From NCBI GenBank assembly GCA_903936565.1, contig CAIZVZ010000005.1, positions 38,315-102,314 of the forward strand: a stretch of 64,000 nucleotides of DNA. The letters are read 5' to 3'. The DNA is from an uncultured bacterium. GTDB lineage: Bacteria; Patescibacteriota; Minisyncoccia; Phycocordibacterales; CAIZLB01. This document shows positions 2,773 through 37,806 of the stretch, piece by piece. The translations under genes were made by a program, and so were the position numbers. The notes beneath the pieces were generated by a model. The model was not told the DNA's origin. It ran no database searches and saw only the letters and a list, made by a program, of their open reading frames with translations. Every line of letters starts with the position of its first letter. The first letter of the stretch is position 1.

Positions 2773-3591
2773 TTAGCCGAAAAATATCTGGTTGACGTTT
2801 GCCCCAATCTGCTCCCTCGCCTCCTCAATAGAAATACCCTTAATTTCGGCTATTTTCTGTACCACAAACTTCACATGTACAGGCTCTGCTCTTTTACCCC
2901 TAAACGGAACGGGTGCGACATATGGGCAATCCGTCTCAGAAAGAATCTTATCTAAGGGTATCTCTTTGATTATGGACTCATAGTCCTTAGCAAAGGTAAT
3001 AACCCCCGTGAATGATATTGTAAATCCGCAACTTATGAATGCTTTTGCTTGCTCTATTGAACCAGCAAAGAAGTGTGCATTCCCTCGCAATCTTACACCT
3101 TGGACCCTAATGTAATTATTAAGAATTTCTAAAGTTTCGTTATAACTATCCCTACAATGCAACATTAACGGCTTGTCAATAGCTATAGAGATGTCAATTT
3201 GGCCTCTAAATATTTTCTCCTGTATTTCTTTAACTTTCATAACGTCTACATCCGGATTATATTCAGCTAATTTGAAGAAATCCAAACCACACTCTCCTAT
3301 TCCAATGACCTTTGGATGTTTTGCCAATTCCGCAAGTTCAACGAGCGTACTTTCTATCAAGCCTGCCTTTTCTAAGTCCATTACCTCGTGTGGATGAATT
3401 CCAACAATCGCATAAACCCCCTCATCATATTTTTCGGCGATATCAATAGCTCGCTTTGAAGACTCAATATCAGTTCCAACATTCACCACAAACACATCCT
3501 CGTCTAAGGCTCTTTTTAAAACCTCGTCCCTGTCTGCATCAAACTCTGGAAAGTTCACATGAGCATGTGTATCTATATATTCGAATTTCAT
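2773..3591 (-). CDS. tatD: TatD-family metal-dependent hydrolase (DNase)
   Basis: MKFEYIDTHAHVNFPEFDADRDEVL… has the TatD HxH start motif and a TIM-barrel hydrolase pattern. Immediately downstream of metG, as in many bacteria. Confidence 0.8.
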   Translation of the reverse strand: MKFEYIDTHAHVNFPEFDADRDEVLKRALDEDVFVVNVGTDIESSKRAIDIAEKYDEGVYAIVGIHPHEVMDLEKAGLIESTLVELAELAKHPKVIGIGECGLDFFKLAEYNPDVDVMKVKEIQEKIFRGQIDISIAIDKPLMLHCRDSYNETLEILNNYIRVQGVRLRGNAHFFAGSIEQAKAFISCGFTISFTGVITFAKDYESIIKEIPLDKILSETDCPYVAPVPFRGKRAEPVHVKFVVQKIAEIKGISIEEAREQIGANVNQIFFG

Positions 3592-3615
3592 ATAAATTAA
3601 ATAAAATAATCAGAT

Positions 3616-5130
3616 TTAGTCTTTTCTCAAAAACAATGGAGCCTCTGGCATCTTATGATTTGTAATACAATCAATAATCGCAGATGAAGTATTTGGCATT
3701 ACTACTGAAAGTCTATATGCACCAACCAATAATTGCTCTTGTAAATGAATCAAATCCTTACGAGCCAATTCTGGTTCAATTTTAAATTTCTTGAATGGTT
3801 GTTCTTCTTGAATAAATTGATCCAGCTTTGTAAAGTTATCAAAAATTTCTTGAACATACAGGTCTAATCTATAGTCCTCAATATGTTTATTTTCTTTTCC
3901 ATTTAGAATACCAACGGATGCCCTAGATGCCTGTATTTGTTCATTAGAAAGTTTGGCCTCGTAAGAAACCGCCATCTTCATAACTCTTGAAACTAGATTA
4001 CCAATTCCATTTGCAAGGTGCGCATTATAAACTTCCTTGAACTTATTCATCGCAAAAGGTGAATCTTCAAATGGTTGAAGCTCTTTTGTAACAAAGAATC
4101 TAAGTGCATCAGCACCATATTCCTCCACAACTTCTGTTGGATTAATTGTATTTCCCAATGACTTAGACATCTTTACCCCACCCTCACCAGTTATCCAACC
4201 ATTAATAATAATCTTGTTAGTATTTGGTAGACCCGCCGCCAAGAGCATAGACTGCCATGTTAATGCCTGGAATCTGGTATTATCCTTTCCACAATATTGA
4301 ACCGGTGTTCCATCTCTCCAGTATTTATTAAAATCGCCAATTTCCCCTTCACCCTTCTTCTCATTATTTTCATTCTCCGGCCACCCTAAGGTTGAAATGT
4401 AATTTGTAAGCGCATCAAACCAAACATACATAACATGATCATTATCCTCAGGCACGTCAATTCCCCAAGGCATTTTAGCCTTCAGTCTTGAAATACTAAA
4501 GTCCTCCAATCCCCTTTTAACAAACTCCTTCATTTCATTTAGCCTTGATTCTGGAATAACGATTTGCGGATTCGATTCAAATAAAGTATATAACTGGTCA
4601 GCAAGTGCGGATAGTTTAAAGAAATAATTTTCTTCATCGATAATTTCTATATCACGATTTGGGTGAACTGGGCATTTACCATCCACGAGCTCTGAGTCAG
4701 TTTTATTTTCCTCACATCCAACACAGTATTTTGTTTGATAATTCTTCTTGTAAATATAACCCCTTTCTTTAACTCTATTCCATAACGCCTGAGAGCTAGT
4801 TGTGTGATGCTTATCTGTAGTTCTTATAAAGTGAATATCTGACAGAATATCAAGATCGCCAATTAAATTCTTAAACTTTGAAGAAGCCTCATCCAAAAAG
4901 TCCATTATATCCATCCCCCTTTCCTTTGCTGTCTCGAACAATTTGAGACCATGCTCATCCGTTCCAGTATTAAAAAATACATCAAAACCTAGCACTTTTT
5001 TGTATCTAGCTATAACGTCGGCTCTAATTATTTCCATCGCAAATCCAATATGAGGATCACCATTCACATAAGGAAGGGTTGTAGTGATATAGAAACTTTT
5101 CTTATCTTGATTTTTTATATTTTGAGACAT
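3616..5130 (-). CDS. metG: Methionine--tRNA ligase
   Basis: Class I aaRS: …TTTLPYVNGDPHIGFAMEII… (HIGH-like) and KMSKSLGNTI (KMSKS). 504 aa. Confidence 0.9.
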   Translation of the reverse strand: MSQNIKNQDKKSFYITTTLPYVNGDPHIGFAMEIIRADVIARYKKVLGFDVFFNTGTDEHGLKLFETAKERGMDIMDFLDEASSKFKNLIGDLDILSDIHFIRTTDKHHTTSSQALWNRVKERGYIYKKNYQTKYCVGCEENKTDSELVDGKCPVHPNRDIEIIDEENYFFKLSALADQLYTLFESNPQIVIPESRLNEMKEFVKRGLEDFSISRLKAKMPWGIDVPEDNDHVMYVWFDALTNYISTLGWPENENNEKKGEGEIGDFNKYWRDGTPVQYCGKDNTRFQALTWQSMLLAAGLPNTNKIIINGWITGEGGVKMSKSLGNTINPTEVVEEYGADALRFFVTKELQPFEDSPFAMNKFKEVYNAHLANGIGNLVSRVMKMAVSYEAKLSNEQIQASRASVGILNGKENKHIEDYRLDLYVQEIFDNFTKLDQFIQEEQPFKKFKIEPELARKDLIHLQEQLLVGAYRLSVVMPNTSSAIIDCITNHKMPEAPLFLRKD

Positions 5131-30323: not shown

Positions 30324-30394
30324 AATCTAGTGCGCGAGAGAGGACTTGAACCTCCACACCCTTACGGGCACATCCACCTCAAGGATGCTTGTCT
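30311..30394 (-). tRNA. tRNA-Leu (anticodon GAG), type II with long variable arm, CCA not encoded
   Basis: Minus strand reads GCGCGAGTGTTGAAACTGGTAGACAAGCATCCTTGAGGTGGATGTGCCCGTAAGGGTGTGGAGGTTCAAGTCCTCTCTCGCGCA. Anticodon loop is CTTGAGGT. Confidence 0.8.
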
Positions 30395-30440
30395 ACCAGT
30401 TTCAACACTCGCGCATGGCTATATTATGCATAAAACCCAA

Positions 30441-32535: not shown

Positions 32536-32562
32536 AAAACTAAAAACGCCTTTCGGCGTTTT
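32536..32562 (-). terminator. Intrinsic terminator directly after tRNA-Arg (minus strand)
   Basis: Minus strand reads AACGCC-gaaa-GGCGTT followed by TTTTAGTTTT. Confidence 0.55.
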
Positions 32563-32568
32563 GTTTTG

Positions 32569-32640
32569 TGCTCTCGGTAGGAATCGAACCTACATTAACG
32601 GCTTAGAAGTCCGCAGTTCTATCCATTGAACTACAAGAGC
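32569..32640 (-). tRNA. tRNA-Arg (anticodon TCT) with 4-nt variable loop and one A·G mismatch closing the anticodon stem. CCA not encoded.
   Basis: Minus strand reads GCTCTTGTAGTTCAATGGATAGAACTGCGGACTTCTAAGCCGTTAATGTAGGTTCGATTCCTACCGAGAGCA. Acceptor, D and T arms pair well. Confidence 0.6.
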
Positions 32641-32699
32641 ATGCAAATACAATAGCATATTTTTTAGATTTTACCAGCCCCACCCCATCTAAGTAAAAC

Positions 32700-33080
32700 C
32701 TAGCGCTTAATGTTGGTTGTGGTACCAGAAGTTGTTGAATTTCCCACCATAGAGGTTCCAACGACCGCATTATTATTTTCATAAGTAGCCTTGGTGCTTG
32801 TTGCTACTACCCCCCAAGACACCTCCCTGATTTGATATTTCTCAATTACGCTTTTAATCTCCGCCTCCTTATCCTTTACAGGAACAAAGTCTGTCGCTTC
32901 ACCTGCATCAGACATTAAAGTTGACTGAACGGAAAAATAGAAAAAATAACTCCAAATAAAAACTCCTAGTATTATAGAAAAAGATATAATCATAATTCTT
33001 TGCCAATCCTGAACAGGTCGACTGCCGAATATATACATATTCTTTAATTTACTTCCAAATTGTCCTAGTTCTATGTTCAT
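32700..33080 (-). CDS. Small single-TM protein at the distal end of the pilMNO cluster (PilP-like position), unknown function
   Basis: 126 aa with one TM, then a soluble S/T-rich C-terminus. Co-oriented and abutting pilO. Confidence 0.35.
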   Translation of the reverse strand: MNIELGQFGSKLKNMYIFGSRPVQDWQRIMIISFSIILGVFIWSYFFYFSVQSTLMSDAGEATDFVPVKDKEAEIKSVIEKYQIREVSWGVVATSTKATYENNNAVVGTSMVGNSTTSGTTTNIKR

Positions 33081-33081
33081 A

Positions 33082-33627
33082 TTATTTTTCTTTGACTACT
33101 AATATTTGTAAATCTAACTGTTGGGAACTCGTCGCAGTCTGCAGTCCACCGACTTTTGCAGTAGAATAACTTTTTATCTTTATATTAAAAGGCAGAGATT
33201 CAACTTTATCAACAAAATTTGAGACTGATAACTTGGTACCAGAAATACTTTCCTTTATACTTAAATATTCTTTATTAAACTTAGATAAATTACCGTCCTG
33301 TACTATCTCAATGGCATTTGTACTGAATGTTAAATTGTTTAATGTTGCCAAATCTTCTATCGTCTGTACAAACTTTATAGAACCTTCATTATCAACTGGA
33401 ACAATGTACTTCATCAAATCTGCATTTCTTGCGTCTGCATTCTGAGCAACTCTCTTTATGGAATTCAGGCTATCTTCCTCCTTTTTTAAATCATTAGATT
33501 TCTTATAAATACTTACCAAATCTCCTCCCATACCCCCAACATAAACCACAGCAAAACAATATCCAGAAATAGATGCTAGGGCAAGTATTATCGATATTAT
33601 TAATGTGTAGAAAGTTTTTTTAGTCAT
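33082..33627 (-). CDS. pilO: Type IV pilus assembly protein PilO-like
   Basis: 181 aa, N-terminal TM, coiled-coil then a ferredoxin-like periplasmic domain. Position after pilM/pilN. Confidence 0.5.
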   Translation of the reverse strand: MTKKTFYTLIISIILALASISGYCFAVVYVGGMGGDLVSIYKKSNDLKKEEDSLNSIKRVAQNADARNADLMKYIVPVDNEGSIKFVQTIEDLATLNNLTFSTNAIEIVQDGNLSKFNKEYLSIKESISGTKLSVSNFVDKVESLPFNIKIKSYSTAKVGGLQTATSSQQLDLQILVVKEK

Positions 33628-33630
33628 TGT

Positions 33631-34182
33631 CTATTTTTTTACAGACTTAATTAAATTAAAATTAAATGAAAAACTTAAATCTTTCTTTCTTGTAAAGCTT
33701 GTAATTGGTATATTTATACTTGTAAATTCTGGGTTTGAATTAATTTTCTTCTGTAATTCTATTAATTTGTCTCTATCTGGAGCAACACCACTTATGCTAA
33801 TTGAAGCACTGTTATCATCAATCAATCCATAGGTGTATCTATCAATATAAACCCCCTCTGGTAAGCTGTTTAAAATCTTATTATATGCCTCTTTGGGGGA
33901 TAATATATTTATAGATGTTTTAAGAGCTTCCAAACTTGAATTGACTAACTTAATTTTATCTTGAAAGTTTTGATCCTTTAATACCTGAACGGACCTTTCT
34001 TTTATTTGGTTCTCGCTCTTAATTATATTCACCCTACCTACAGCAGATAGATAACTCGGAAGAAGGCAAGCTAACCCAACCAAAGATATAAACACAATAA
34101 TCCAACAAATCACAATAACAAGCCTCATTTTATACTCTTTGATAACCTTTTTCTTTTGTGATTCTGATAATAGGTGTAACAT
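33631..34182 (-). CDS. pilN: Type IV pilus assembly protein PilN-like
   Basis: 183 aa, short cytoplasmic N-terminus (binds PilM), single TM, periplasmic coiled-coil. Gene order M-N-O. Confidence 0.5.
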   Translation of the reverse strand: MLHLLSESQKKKVIKEYKMRLVIVICWIIVFISLVGLACLLPSYLSAVGRVNIIKSENQIKERSVQVLKDQNFQDKIKLVNSSLEALKTSINILSPKEAYNKILNSLPEGVYIDRYTYGLIDDNSASISISGVAPDRDKLIELQKKINSNPEFTSINIPITSFTRKKDLSFSFNFNLIKSVKK

Positions 34183-34186
34183 CTTT

Positions 34187-35308
34187 TTATTGATCTTTTA
34201 ATAAAGCCAGGCCAAAAGCAGTACCATACCCCAAAGATTCTCGCATGGAAATCTCTGGTATTTCATTCTCAAACGATAGAATGTTAGTCCAAACATTCGC
34301 AACCTCAACCGGAGTCTTTAGTGATATTGCGAGGAAGTCTCTAAAACCAACAACACCAGCTTCCTTTCCCGCTATTAATATCTTCTTGACTCCCGCTGAT
34401 GAATTACCGTTATTTGGTAAACCAGAAACCGCATCAACATTACTCTTAAAATTATTTATACTATTCCAGTAAATAAACACCTTTCTAATTTCCTCGACCA
34501 ACAAATTAGCAGTTGACATCAACGCATTAGAAACGGCCTCATTACCAATGTCTCGTGAAAAACCCTTCTCGAACTTTATTGAAACAGCAGCATCTTCATC
34601 GAGGGACGCACCTTTCATAATGGCGTTAGTAAAATCTTCGGATCCAATAGCGATCGTGGAGGTAAACTGAACAGCCTCATCGTTCACAACCGACAAGACA
34701 GTACTCTTGTGACTAATGTTAACAATGAAATAATTTTCTCTGTCCCCTTTTTTGATAATAGCTCGAGATAATGCTTGGTTTTCAATAAGAAAGGAAATTG
34801 GAAACATTCCGCAAGACTCAAACAACTCAATATATTCATTTATCACAACAACTGGCACAACAGAGACGGCCAAAAATTGCATACCCGTACTCTCATTTTT
34901 CTTTATTCTATGATAATCAAAAATTGCATCATCTAACGATAATGGCACATTTTCTTCAAGGTGCATCTCTATTCTATTTCTAATTTCTTCTTTTGTTCCA
35001 TCGACCACCTCGATAGTGAACAGATAAGCCTTCTCTTCTGGAATAGATATCTCTACAAACTTTAACTTATATTTTTTTTGAATCTTTTTTAATATATCTA
35101 TTAGATTTTTATTAGACAACAGTGATTCATTCGGCAAAATCGGTGATTCCAACTTTTCCTCGGTACAACATTTTAATTTTAACCCCCTAGCAGTTCTAAT
35201 AATTTCAGCCATATGAACAGCGGAGGAGCTGATATCAAAACCAGCATGGGACATTTCTAGATAGTGCGAAGTTGGAAAATATTTATTTAATGTATCTAGG
35301 TACGACAT
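34187..35308 (-). CDS. pilM: Type IV pilus assembly protein PilM (actin-like ATPase fold)
   Basis: 373 aa. Architecture and motifs of the FtsA/PilM family (…ILIAGKEAGVVGF… …GYGTAFGLALL…). Heads the pilMNO cluster. Confidence 0.65.
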   Translation of the reverse strand: MSYLDTLNKYFPTSHYLEMSHAGFDISSSAVHMAEIIRTARGLKLKCCTEEKLESPILPNESLLSNKNLIDILKKIQKKYKLKFVEISIPEEKAYLFTIEVVDGTKEEIRNRIEMHLEENVPLSLDDAIFDYHRIKKNESTGMQFLAVSVVPVVVINEYIELFESCGMFPISFLIENQALSRAIIKKGDRENYFIVNISHKSTVLSVVNDEAVQFTSTIAIGSEDFTNAIMKGASLDEDAAVSIKFEKGFSRDIGNEAVSNALMSTANLLVEEIRKVFIYWNSINNFKSNVDAVSGLPNNGNSSAGVKKILIAGKEAGVVGFRDFLAISLKTPVEVANVWTNILSFENEIPEISMRESLGYGTAFGLALLKDQ

Positions 35309-35386: not shown

Positions 35387-36250
35387 CTATTTTAACTTTG
35401 TACCATTTGGTAAATCCTTACTTGGATTAAGTAGGGCTAAATTGTCACCTGAGTTGCCAGCTAAAATCATAGCCTGACTCTCTTGCCCCATCATCATTCT
35501 AGGAGCTAGGTTTGTAACAAATGGAAACTTCTTTCCCAGAATTTCTTCCATTTCTACATATTTTGCAATTCCCGATAGAACCTGCCTTGGCTTTTCTTCA
35601 CCAAAATCAACTGATAGTTTCAATAACTTATCAGACCCTTCTATCTTTTCTGCGGATAAAATCTGGCCAATCTTTATTTCAACCTTAACAAAATCGTCTA
35701 TTGTAATATAGTCTGGAGTTTTAGGTACCCCTGCCTCTGGAGCCCTGTCGGCAGATGCCGCGTTGTCCACAACTATTTCATCCCCTGCTGTTGTTTGTGT
35801 ATTCATATTTTTAAATTTTATTCTATCTAGATAACTTTGTAAAATTATAGCCGCTGCTGATGCATCTACGTTCTTATTCTCACCTTGAAACTTAGTAGCT
35901 TGAACCGTGGAGTATAATTCTGGTTCATATACAACATCAAATCCAGCTTCTTCAAGTTTTGATCCAAAGAACCTAGCATCCACCATTATTGTATTATCAA
36001 CCCCCTTCAAATCTACCGAGTGTCCAATTATAACAGTCTGGGCCTGCTTTTCTTTTATAATATCAAACACCTCCTGCAAGGCCAACCTTATCCTTTCCTC
36101 CCTCTTATCTGTATCGTGACCAAAACCAGGAACCACCGACAAAGGAAATGCTAATAAACCAAGCTCATCCGAGACAGCTACGCCGATTCTCTTTGATCCA
36201 AAATCTAGCCCTACTATCCTTTTGTTTACTTCAGAGACATCTTTATTCAT
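35387..36250 (-). CDS. ruvX: Fusion protein: Holliday-junction-resolvase-like RuvX/YqgF (N-terminal) plus Trbp111/CsaA-type tRNA-binding domain (C-terminal)
   Basis: N-terminus RIVGLDFGSKRIGVAVSD…DASAAAIILQSYLD equals the YqgF/RuvX signature. C-terminus DFVKVEIKIGQILSAEKIEGSDKLLKLSVDFGEEKPRQVLSGIAKYV…FVTNLAPRMMMGQESQAMILA equals the PF01588 tRNA_bind OB fold. Confidence 0.8.
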   Translation of the reverse strand: MNKDVSEVNKRIVGLDFGSKRIGVAVSDELGLLAFPLSVVPGFGHDTDKREERIRLALQEVFDIIKEKQAQTVIIGHSVDLKGVDNTIMVDARFFGSKLEEAGFDVVYEPELYSTVQATKFQGENKNVDASAAAIILQSYLDRIKFKNMNTQTTAGDEIVVDNAASADRAPEAGVPKTPDYITIDDFVKVEIKIGQILSAEKIEGSDKLLKLSVDFGEEKPRQVLSGIAKYVEMEEILGKKFPFVTNLAPRMMMGQESQAMILAGNSGDNLALLNPSKDLPNGTKLK

Positions 36251-36371
36251 GATTATTTGTAGTCTATCAAAAAGAATGGTTTGTGGCTAATTATGATAAT
36301 AAGAGCCGTGAGATGTTGACCAAATCCTCATCTATTGTTTTTTTCTTTATTTTTGCTAATATGACAAGCAC

Positions 36372-36458
36372 GGAGGAGTGGCAGAGTGGTCTAATGCACT
36401 TGTCTTGAAAACAAGAGTCTCTTTACGGGGACCGTGAGTTCGAATCTCACCTCCTCCG
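36372..36458 (+). tRNA. tRNA-Ser (anticodon TGA), type II
   Basis: GGAGGAGTGGCAGAGTGGTCTAATGCACTTGTCTTGAAAACAAGAGTCTCTTTACGGGGACCGTGAGTTCGAATCTCACCTCCTCCG. Confidence 0.85.
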
Positions 36459-36469
36459 CCGATATTTAA

Positions 36470-37299: not shown

Positions 37300-37806
37300 A
37301 TGGGTGATATAATTATTTTAATCATGGACAATGAACCACAAGTCAAATCAATAACCTGGGAAACTTACGAGCATGAACATCGGGAAAAAAGTAAAGACTG
37401 GTATTGGTCTCTTGGAATTTTAATTGTCACAGCGTCAGTTCTGTCTATAATTTTTGGTAATTATCTTTTTGGAATACTACTTATCGTTATAGGTGTATCA
37501 CTTGCGGTTGTTGGATCCAAACATCCAAAGTTAACCATTTTTGAATTAAACAAGATGGGTATCAGAATTGGCAATAAACTATTTCCCTACGCCACCCTTG
37601 AGGCTTTTTGGGTTCAGGATAATGGGGAACACGACCGACCATCTCAATTATTGGTTAAGTCAAGAAAGACAATGGTACCTTTATTGATAATCCCAATCGA
37701 AGGAATAGAGACTCACGAGATTAGGGATTTCTTATTGTATAATCTACTTGAAAAGGAGATGGAGGAGTCCCTTTCACAGCTAATACTAGAAAATTTGGGT
37801 TTTTAG
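37300..37806 (+). CDS. Membrane protein, unknown function (two TM then soluble domain, possibly bacterial PH-like)
   Basis: 168 aa. Hydrophobic hairpin WYWSLGILIVTASVLSIIFGNYLFGILLIVIGVSLAVVG. Confidence 0.35.
   Translation: MGDIIILIMDNEPQVKSITWETYEHEHREKSKDWYWSLGILIVTASVLSIIFGNYLFGILLIVIGVSLAVVGSKHPKLTIFELNKMGIRIGNKLFPYATLEAFWVQDNGEHDRPSQLLVKSRKTMVPLLIIPIEGIETHEIRDFLLYNLLEKEMEESLSQLILENLGF

Follow-up and report, generated by a model that had tools for sequence, protein, structure and literature searches.

The RuvX/YqgF nucleases are described as essential in E. coli, M. tuberculosis and Salmonella in work cited in PMC9601230, and their role is disputed: they have been regarded as Holliday-junction resolvases, as RNases that mature the 5′ end of 16S rRNA and as anti-termination factors (PMC9601230). 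Here we analyze a gene that joins such a nuclease to a tRNA-binding OB fold within one open reading frame (ORF), in a stretch of 64,000 nucleotides (nt) of DNA from an uncultured bacterium (contig CAIZVZ010000005.1, positions 38,315 to 102,314; we refer to this whole stretch as the window). The bacterium belongs to the phylum now named Minisyncoccota by NCBI. The fusion proves to be the less common form of a gene pair, ruvX followed by trbp, and the pairing hints that RuvX may work on tRNA-like RNA.

The OB fold in question is that of Trbp111 and of the C-terminal domain of methionyl-tRNA synthetase (MetRS). In a co-crystal structure from 2024, Trbp111 captures the single-stranded 3′-terminal C75-A76 through K33, R75, F78, S82 and M85 without reading the elbow or shape of the tRNA, and among the mutants reported F78A had the smallest effect (PMC11286949). 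Furthermore, the Trbp111 homodimer is extremely stable, is formed through residues 1–15 and 90–111, and has an interface that has been proposed as a dimerizer for fusion proteins (PMC11286949); chimeras (PDB 7d8r/s/t) indicate that Trbp111 structurally tolerates a partner fused to its N-terminus and that such proteins dimerize. MetRS, PheRS beta, eukaryotic TyrRS, Arc1p, AIMP1/p43 and Plasmodium tRip, as the account in PMC11286949 presents them, resemble the protein studied here in carrying a tRNA-end binder of modest affinity on a flexible linker; as far as that account extends, every previously known fusion partner of the fold handles tRNA, and the fold raises the local tRNA concentration. 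The protein studied here differs from the known Trbp/EMAPII OB-fold fusions in that its partner is a nuclease, and we found no such partner for this fold described in the literature. Likewise, a literature search for links between RuvX/YqgF and Trbp111, a tRNA-binding domain or PF01588 returned nothing relevant, and in a 2025 survey that covers factors for ribosome biogenesis across this radiation, yqgF figures solely as a gene for a ribonuclease and the fusion goes unmentioned (PMC12641178).

One ORF encodes both domains

The fusion is a single ORF on the minus strand that encodes 287 amino acids (aa) from an ATG start to a stop codon, with zero internal stops. Both of its domains pass the models of their families: in Pfam, PF03652 RuvX matches aa 11–142 (E 2.8e-23, 83.2 bits against a cutoff of 29.2) and PF01588 tRNA_bind matches aa 192–285 (E 2.1e-26, 92.3 bits against 27), and in NCBIfam the N-terminal part passes TIGR00250 RuvX (49.9 against 43.25) and the C-terminal part TIGR00399 metG_C_term (121.8 against 116.65). 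Hence the two-domain architecture that an initial annotation had read from the sequence alone stands, including its assignment of the C-terminal part to PF01588. No frameshift or stop separates the domains, and the same 287-aa protein occurs on 24 contigs from four sources (NCBI, JGI, Logan and ENA), which excludes a one-off assembly frameshift; the fusion ORF is confirmed as a real gene and not an assembly accident. Its parts are located as follows.

35387..36250, minus strand: the complete ruvX::trbp fusion ORF (ORF reading, Pfam, same protein on 24 contigs)
35825..36220, minus strand: RuvX/YqgF RNase H-like nuclease domain, aa 11–142 (Pfam and NCBIfam, above cutoff)
36203–36205, 35918–35920 and 35864–35866, minus strand: acidic triad D16, E111 and D129, respectively (alignments of fused homologues)
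35708..35824, minus strand: linker, aa 143–181, comprising the tail of the RuvX C-terminal helix to about aa 151 and then a disordered segment, aa 154–176
35804..35806, minus strand: codon of Met149, a probable relic of the trbp start (comparison with the split relative L019)
35393..35707, minus strand: tRNA_bind OB fold of the Trbp111/MetRS C-terminal type, aa 182–286 (Pfam, TIGR00399, Trbp111 alignment, Foldseek)
35627–35629, 35498–35500, 35477–35479 and 35468–35470, minus strand: 3′-CA pocket residues K208, R251, S258 and M261, respectively (contacts as in PMC11286949)

No curated NCBIfam model covering both domains together matched the protein, no PDB chain with both domains was among the Foldseek matches of its predicted structure, and neither domain has a second copy within the 64-kb window. 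A large protein database has about 100 representatives of clusters with this two-domain make-up, the most distant at 38% identity (about 18 at 50% clustering). Where named, they belong to Paceibacterota or Patescibacteria, the member names being otherwise little informative, and their database annotation is inconsistent, each being called either RuvX or 'MetRS subunit beta'.

The nuclease domain

The N-terminal 142 aa retain the characteristics of the described RuvX/YqgF proteins (E. coli YqgF, B. subtilis YrrK, M. tuberculosis RuvX and D. radiodurans YqgF), with both curated models passed and the RNase H-like fold and the D/E/D residues kept. Specifically, alignments of 31 and of 91 fused homologues show no variation at D16 (the Asp of the N-terminal DxG motif), E111 or D129 (the Asp of the DASAA motif). 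When matched by motif position without structure-based alignment, these residues correspond to D22, E106 and D122 in the YqgF of D. radiodurans, where mutating them reduces RNase activity or eliminates it (PMC9601230). The best PDB sequence matches of the domain are E. coli YqgF and B. subtilis YrrK. AlphaFold2 (AF2) models it as an RNase H-like fold with a predicted local distance difference test score (pLDDT) above 90, and Foldseek gives template modelling scores (TMt) of 0.85 to D. radiodurans YqgF (7w89), 0.73–0.76 to 1vhx and 0.67–0.70 to 7ess. Judged by these residues, the nuclease active site of the fusion is intact. An insertion of about 16 aa (about aa 42–57) in the alignment is peculiar to the window's clade. 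To our knowledge, the characterized members of the family are all single-domain proteins of about 130–170 aa; in contrast, the protein studied here carries an OB fold at its C-terminus, and split relatives encode one directly downstream.

The OB fold

The C-terminal domain is closest to Trbp111. Its best PDB match is Aquifex aeolicus Trbp111 (1pyb, 8vtz; E 1e-28 with the full protein), and the domain alone aligns to residues 7–110 of the 111 of Trbp111 (E 8e-30, about 47–48% identity), with TMt values of 0.88–0.94 against Trbp111 and MetRS C-terminal domains and of 0.88–0.90 over 107–111 columns. The alignment also shows that the N- and C-terminal dimer-forming segments are kept. The domain thus shares its fold and its 3′-CA contacts with Trbp111 (the 'MetRS beta subunit'; 1pyb, 8vtz/8vu0) and with the MetRS C-terminal domain (TIGR00399; 1mkh, 5h34), and it equals free dimeric Trbp111 in size, having no EMAPII-type pseudo-dimer extension. 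It differs in being joined to a nuclease, where the known domains are attached to an aminoacyl-tRNA synthetase or free-standing, in a phenylalanine-to-methionine replacement, and in its setting, in that the MetRS of the window's lineage has no such domain. The residues that contact C75-A76 in Trbp111 compare as follows.

Trbp111 K33: K208 in the window protein, present in at least 90% of 91 fused homologues
Trbp111 R75: R251, present in at least 90% of the 91
Trbp111 F78: M254, a conservative replacement in the window protein
Trbp111 S82: S258, invariant in the 91
Trbp111 M85: M261, invariant in the 91

We examined two other identities for this domain, the export chaperone CsaA and E. coli YgjH, and rejected both. 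Fold and size are shared with these proteins (CsaA TMt about 0.9), but the family cutoffs are missed by far (for CsaA, 58.5 against 171 with NF007496 and 44.6 against 119.65 with TIGR02222; the NCBIfam model for YgjH likewise scores far under its cutoff), and sequence similarity is much weaker than to Trbp111, with PDB matches to CsaA at E 4e-13 or worse against 1e-28. Of the label 'Trbp111/CsaA-type' that the initial annotation had used, only the first half is therefore retained. That annotation had also called the domain a structure-specific tRNA-binding module, and here the description has to change, because the fold captures the single-stranded 3′-CA and not the shape or elbow of the tRNA (PMC11286949); 'predicted reader of the tRNA 3′-CA end and dimerizer' should replace it.

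The linker and the predicted architecture

The AF2 model of the window protein, built from a 91-sequence alignment, contains two well-folded domains (mean pLDDT 86.8, predicted template modelling score [pTM] 0.57), and that of a homologue with a short linker (P0021, 243 aa, 84-sequence alignment) is comparable (pLDDT 89.6, pTM 0.51). Since pTM is only 0.57 and 0.51 despite the high pLDDT, a fixed interdomain arrangement is not predicted, and the modelled protein looks like two separately folded beads on a flexible string. Between them, aa 154–176 have pLDDT below 50 and are hypervariable in both length and sequence in the homologue alignment.

Comparison with relatives that encode the two proteins separately suggests where this linker comes from. 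In L019, the closest split relative, RuvX ends ...ILQSYLDRIQFKNNI (...DRIQFKNNI) and, 4 nt further on, Trbp starts MSEEQTQSEKTYITIDDF (MSEEQTQ...); the window protein reads ...ILQSYLDRIKFKN-M149-NTQTT...PDYITIDDF... (...DRIKFKN-MNTQTT...) at the same place. In P0100 and P0107, whose C-domains are 66–67% identical to that of the window, a free Trbp of 157–158 aa with a disordered N-tail of about 50 aa is encoded 20 nt downstream of a 149-aa RuvX. The linker of about 30–40 aa is thus the RuvX C-tail plus the N-terminal tail that Trbp already had, and Met149 is probably the former trbp start codon. It sits within a 'KFKNMNTQ' motif that is conserved in the window's clade. An internal start at Met149 that yields free Trbp is a possibility; no Shine-Dalgarno-like sequence lies upstream of Met149 in this AT-rich context.

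The fusion is a minority state of a conserved gene pair

The arrangement of ruvX and trbp in relatives was examined in two samples. The first comprised the best 80 of at least 517 related loci, anchored on RuvX with one genome per GTDB species and subjected to our own ORF analysis (hereafter, species loci); their labels are Paceibacterota, Parcubacteria, Taylor-, Kaiser-, Nomura- and Lloydbacteria and Minisyncoccia, with some labeled generically as 'Saccharibacteria'. The second was a scan of metagenome contigs anchored on Trbp, which also comprised 80 loci. The arrangements found were these.

ruvX followed by a Trbp gene on the same strand: 71 of 80 species loci
of these, as two separate genes: 66 of 71
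of these, as a single frame (fused): 5 of 71, including L006 with its internal stop (thus 4–5)
ruvX with no Trbp gene nearby, dedA and/or pilM following: 7 of 80 species loci
rearranged orientation: 2 of 80 species loci
split ruvX-trbp pair: 42 metagenome loci
fused: 8 metagenome loci
ruvX 1.3 kb away: 1 metagenome locus
ruvX close by in another orientation: 2 metagenome loci
C-terminus of a full-length MetRS, in clearly unrelated bacteria: 17 metagenome loci
neither ruvX nor MetRS upstream: 8 metagenome loci
too short to judge: 2 metagenome loci

Thus the survey of relatives that the initial annotation had suggested does find the fusion again, but the typical state is two separate adjacent genes (66 vs 4–5 species loci and 42 vs 8 metagenome loci), and the fusion is a minority state of a conserved, tightly packed ruvX-trbp pair in the Minisyncoccota (Paceibacteria/Parcubacteria). 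Among the 60 clean split pairs, the two genes are a median of 11 nt apart; the spacing stays within ±30 nt in 45 of the pairs, and in 13 the genes overlap (ATGA and −8 types). The free Trbp usually has 106–119 aa, the size of Trbp111. Since most relatives keep ruvX and the Trbp gene separate but adjoining, covalent attachment is not required. Tight coupling is not obligatory either, because inserts with extra ORFs separate the pair in four species (L022, 455 nt; L024, 1169 nt; L038, 615 nt; L080, 731 nt).

Two observations on individual loci may be added. The fused frame of L006 (194–910, plus strand), known from one metagenome-assembled genome, has an in-frame stop in the most conserved Trbp motif ('SDKL*LLKV'), and this defect may mean that the gene is a pseudogene, that a nonsense mutation arose recently or that the sequence is in error. 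In the 17 loci where the domain ends a full-length MetRS (L114 and a subset of L131–L164), the synthetase core is 24–38% and the C-domain 48–56% identical to the window's counterparts, the OB domain being far more conserved than the enzyme core; the contigs of these loci have GC contents of up to 0.62, and some come from the human gut.

Recurrence of the fusion

The fused proteins are not monophyletic. A neighbor-joining tree evaluated by Fitch parsimony gave about 13 state changes, with six overlapping split pairs labeled as fused in that tree, and an identity analysis of 202 concatenated domain pairs gave 11 fused clusters at 60% single linkage. Each of the five clusters with several members (65, 17, 8, 5 and 2) resembles its nearest split pair more than it resembles any other fused cluster. 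Fusion, possibly also fission, therefore occurred several times and has persisted; by these comparisons one or the other recurred in several lineages, with the number of events left uncertain by simple neighbor-joining and identity analyses. Within the window's clade, all 17 representatives (64–100% identity) are fused, with in-frame linkers of different lengths, and fusion is kept in clades whose members share as little as about 64% identity. The components are accordingly separate and adjacent in relatives and one ORF in more than one lineage, the pattern of a 'Rosetta stone'.

Genomic context and the MetRS of the window

As the initial annotation had noted, the fusion lies next to a tRNA-Ser gene and the pilM cluster, in a genome whose MetRS has no such C-terminal domain. 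The features concerned are listed here.

36372–36460, plus strand: tRNA-Ser(tga), upstream of and divergent from the fusion
36290..36322, minus strand: weak sigma-70-like promoter candidates (consensus scan only, 9/12 matches)
34187..35308, minus strand: pilM, directly downstream of the fusion
33631..34182, minus strand: pilN, after pilM
downstream of pilN, minus strand: two membrane proteins, 181 aa and 126 aa
32568–32640, minus strand: tRNA-Arg(tct), at the end of the block
32543–32562, minus strand: terminator-like hairpin, after tRNA-Arg(tct)
32543..35308, minus strand: the same-strand block from pilM to the hairpin, a probable operon context
3616..5130, minus strand: MetRS core enzyme, 504 aa, with no tRNA_bind domain (Pfam)

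No terminator-like site was found between the fusion and pilM, and the fusion is the first gene of a minus-strand block that is probably an operon. The promoter candidates fall within the 121-nt spacer that the fusion ORF shares with the divergent tRNA-Ser gene. At Rfam gathering thresholds there are no RNA elements other than tRNAs near the gene. Among the tRNAs of the window, tRNA-Leu(gag) (30330–30414, minus strand) is found by ARAGORN only and not by Rfam at its gathering threshold, and the two methods agree on the other six. A membrane protein of 168 aa, for which Pfam gives no significant match, is encoded at 37300–37806 (plus strand), upstream of a short-chain dehydrogenase/reductase gene; by eye, from a shared 'E(H)xxKSxDWYW(S/A)LGI' stretch, it resembles a family found among the upstream neighbors of ruvX, on the opposite strand, in several loci (L048 and others). 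Between about 4 and 48 kb of the window, GC skew is clearly negative, with values of about −0.12 to −0.22, and beyond 48 kb it is near zero or positive; this change may mark a switch related to replication or a different strand bias of the genes.

Clustering of the neighbors in the 80 species loci shows that what lies upstream of ruvX varies (at −1, 13 of 56 have the most frequent family), and that downstream an order of trbp, (dedA/VTT), pilM, pilN-like and pilO-like genes is common; RuvX and Trbp fall into one cluster in this analysis, bridged by the fused proteins, and the counts at +1 are approximate. Adjacency of ruvX and pilM is kept even where trbp is absent. In L081–L084, dedA comes after the ruvX-trbp pair and pilM is missing; the junction of ruvX and trbp thus persists when genes beyond it change.

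The MetRS of the window is the core enzyme alone, and PF01588 was found in none of its 120 best homologues (54–95% identity, 477–525 aa). A separate metG without the C-terminal domain is thus present in the same genome, which is the situation in which the annotation 'MetRS beta subunit' is applied. In the window, metG stands about 30 kb from the fusion, beside tatD; from the gene order and this distance, trbp is linked to ruvX rather than to metG. No MetRS gene lies within 10 kb of ruvX-trbp in the 80 species loci, and the evidence for a pairing of truncated MetRS with trbp is at the level of the clade. The tatD neighbor, directly after the truncated MetRS, encodes a TatD-family hydrolase (E 2e-73; the two genes together occupy 2773–5130, minus strand).

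Discussion

Both domains of the fusion are well-known families and the OB fold is a known promiscuous fusion partner, such that the architecture is in itself not startling; what invites an explanation is what the attachment might do. The reading that we tentatively favor, with a little less than even confidence, is that the protein is a homodimeric RuvX nuclease tethered to the 3′ ends of tRNAs or tRNA-like transcripts by its OB fold. A central Trbp dimer would carry two RuvX nuclease domains on flexible tethers. Its OB fold would capture the single-stranded 3′-CA with modest affinity and thereby raise the local concentration of substrate for RuvX, as it does when attached to MetRS, and RuvX would cut RNA close to the captured end, such as a 5′ leader by the acceptor end, or an rRNA or tRNA precursor. 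The 5′ and 3′ ends of a tRNA lie side by side, hence a nuclease tethered in this way would have 5′ leaders or the acceptor end within reach. In the split relatives, genes that overlap or nearly abut would maintain the partnership by being translated together. We count in favor of such tethering the intact architecture, the conservation of the catalytic and 3′-CA pocket residues, the tight pairing of the two genes, the recurrence and persistence of the fusion, a gene order that is linked to ruvX, and the precedents of tRNA-handling partners of the fold and of dimerizing N-terminal fusions to Trbp111.

Several observations weigh against tethering, and most of them are what would be expected if the fusion were incidental, an explanation that we regard as a real possibility, if not the one towards which we lean. 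On this account, ruvX and trbp are unrelated housekeeping genes that are co-transcribed and nearly abut in streamlined genomes, RuvX acting in rRNA 5′ maturation or branched-DNA processing and Trbp as a chaperone of tRNA 3′ ends or a MetRS helper in trans; repeated loss of a stop codon joins the genes, and the flexible linker leaves each domain independent. Most relatives indeed have the genes split, and with gaps of −11 to +30 nt a fusion is reached in one step, a 4-nt overlap making accidental fusion easy. The linker is disordered and hypervariable, and a docked interdomain arrangement is absent from the AF2 predictions of both the window protein and P0021. The unrelated pilus genes pilM and pilN (pilMNO) are as conserved in the block as trbp, so that gene order alone is no proof of a functional link and the conserved order may be plain inheritance. 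Moreover, the pair is not obligatory, as seen in the 7 species loci without trbp, the 4 with inserts and the 2 that are rearranged, and 8 of the Trbp loci from metagenomes have neither ruvX nor MetRS upstream. It is also worth considering that all loci come from one phylum, which makes the comparisons phylogenetically dependent, that one of the Trbp111 contact residues, F78, is a methionine (M254) in the window protein, and that a MetRS lacking the domain throughout the clade gives a free MetRS-C-like protein an obvious rationale of its own. Nonetheless, an incidental origin accords poorly with several independent fusions having been kept over long divergence, with trbp standing beside ruvX and not metG, always in the order and orientation of ruvX then trbp where the two are paired, and with all other known partners of the fold being tRNA-handling proteins, as far as PMC11286949 lists them.

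Taking both sides together, the suggestion of the initial annotation that the OB fold gives RuvX an RNA-targeting handle is plausible, favored by the recurrent fusion and by gene order; what tempers it is that AlphaFold predicts no interface between the domains and that gene-order inertia remains a rival explanation, pilMNO being just as conserved in the block.

It is conceivable but improbable that the C-domain contributes mainly its dimer interface rather than RNA binding. It would then turn a normally monomeric RuvX into an obligate dimer that makes paired cuts as a resolvase of Holliday junctions or branched DNA, an activity with a possible connection to the uptake of DNA by the neighboring type IV pilus genes. 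The interface of Trbp111 (1–15 and 90–111) is extremely stable (PMC11286949) and the window domain covers residues 7–110; in work that PMC9601230 cites, M. tuberculosis RuvX is a junction resolvase upon dimerization and a YqgF homologue of H. pylori, DprB, has a role in recombination; and ruvX-pilM adjacency persists without trbp. A pure dimerizer would have no need for the strong conservation of the 3′-CA pocket, however, and in the split majority Trbp would have to bind RuvX in order to dimerize it, for which nothing speaks, while the pilus link consists of gene order only. Still less likely, and in our judgment very unlikely, is a CsaA-like export chaperone for pre-pilins that works with pilM and pilN and for which the joined RuvX would be irrelevant: the shared CsaA fold (TMt about 0.9) and the position directly upstream of pilM in most loci fit this idea, but the CsaA models score far below cutoff where metG_C_term is passed, the Trbp111 match is far stronger than any to CsaA, and in L081–L084 the pair has no pilM next to it. 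That an assembly or sequencing artefact joined two genes, as their separation in most relatives and the defective frame of L006 could suggest, is effectively refuted by the identical ORF on 24 contigs from four sources and by the 17 in-frame fusions of the clade with their varied linkers.

If the incidental explanation is right, the fusion is merely one of neighboring genes in streamlined genomes. The phylum-wide, tightly coupled and repeatedly fused pairing with a domain that reads tRNA 3′-CA ends is nevertheless an independent comparative clue that points to RNA ends as the substrate of RuvX, and it makes the disputed function of this nuclease testable, in the form of the effect of the OB fold on RuvX substrate choice. 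In addition, the pairing shows where the C-terminal domain of MetRS has gone in a large phylum that is uncultivated, and it puts a nuclease on the partner list of the Trbp/EMAPII fold. One can imagine, although we consider it rather unlikely, that RuvX and Trbp together constitute a dedicated nuclease for RNA-end processing or surveillance in the Minisyncoccota, in which the Trbp dimer would latch onto 3′-CCA ends and present RuvX to the 5′ leader or acceptor. The much-debated physiological substrate of RuvX/YqgF, a widely essential family, would then be structured RNA ends rather than Holliday junctions, and the pair might compensate for RNases that are missing from these reduced genomes.

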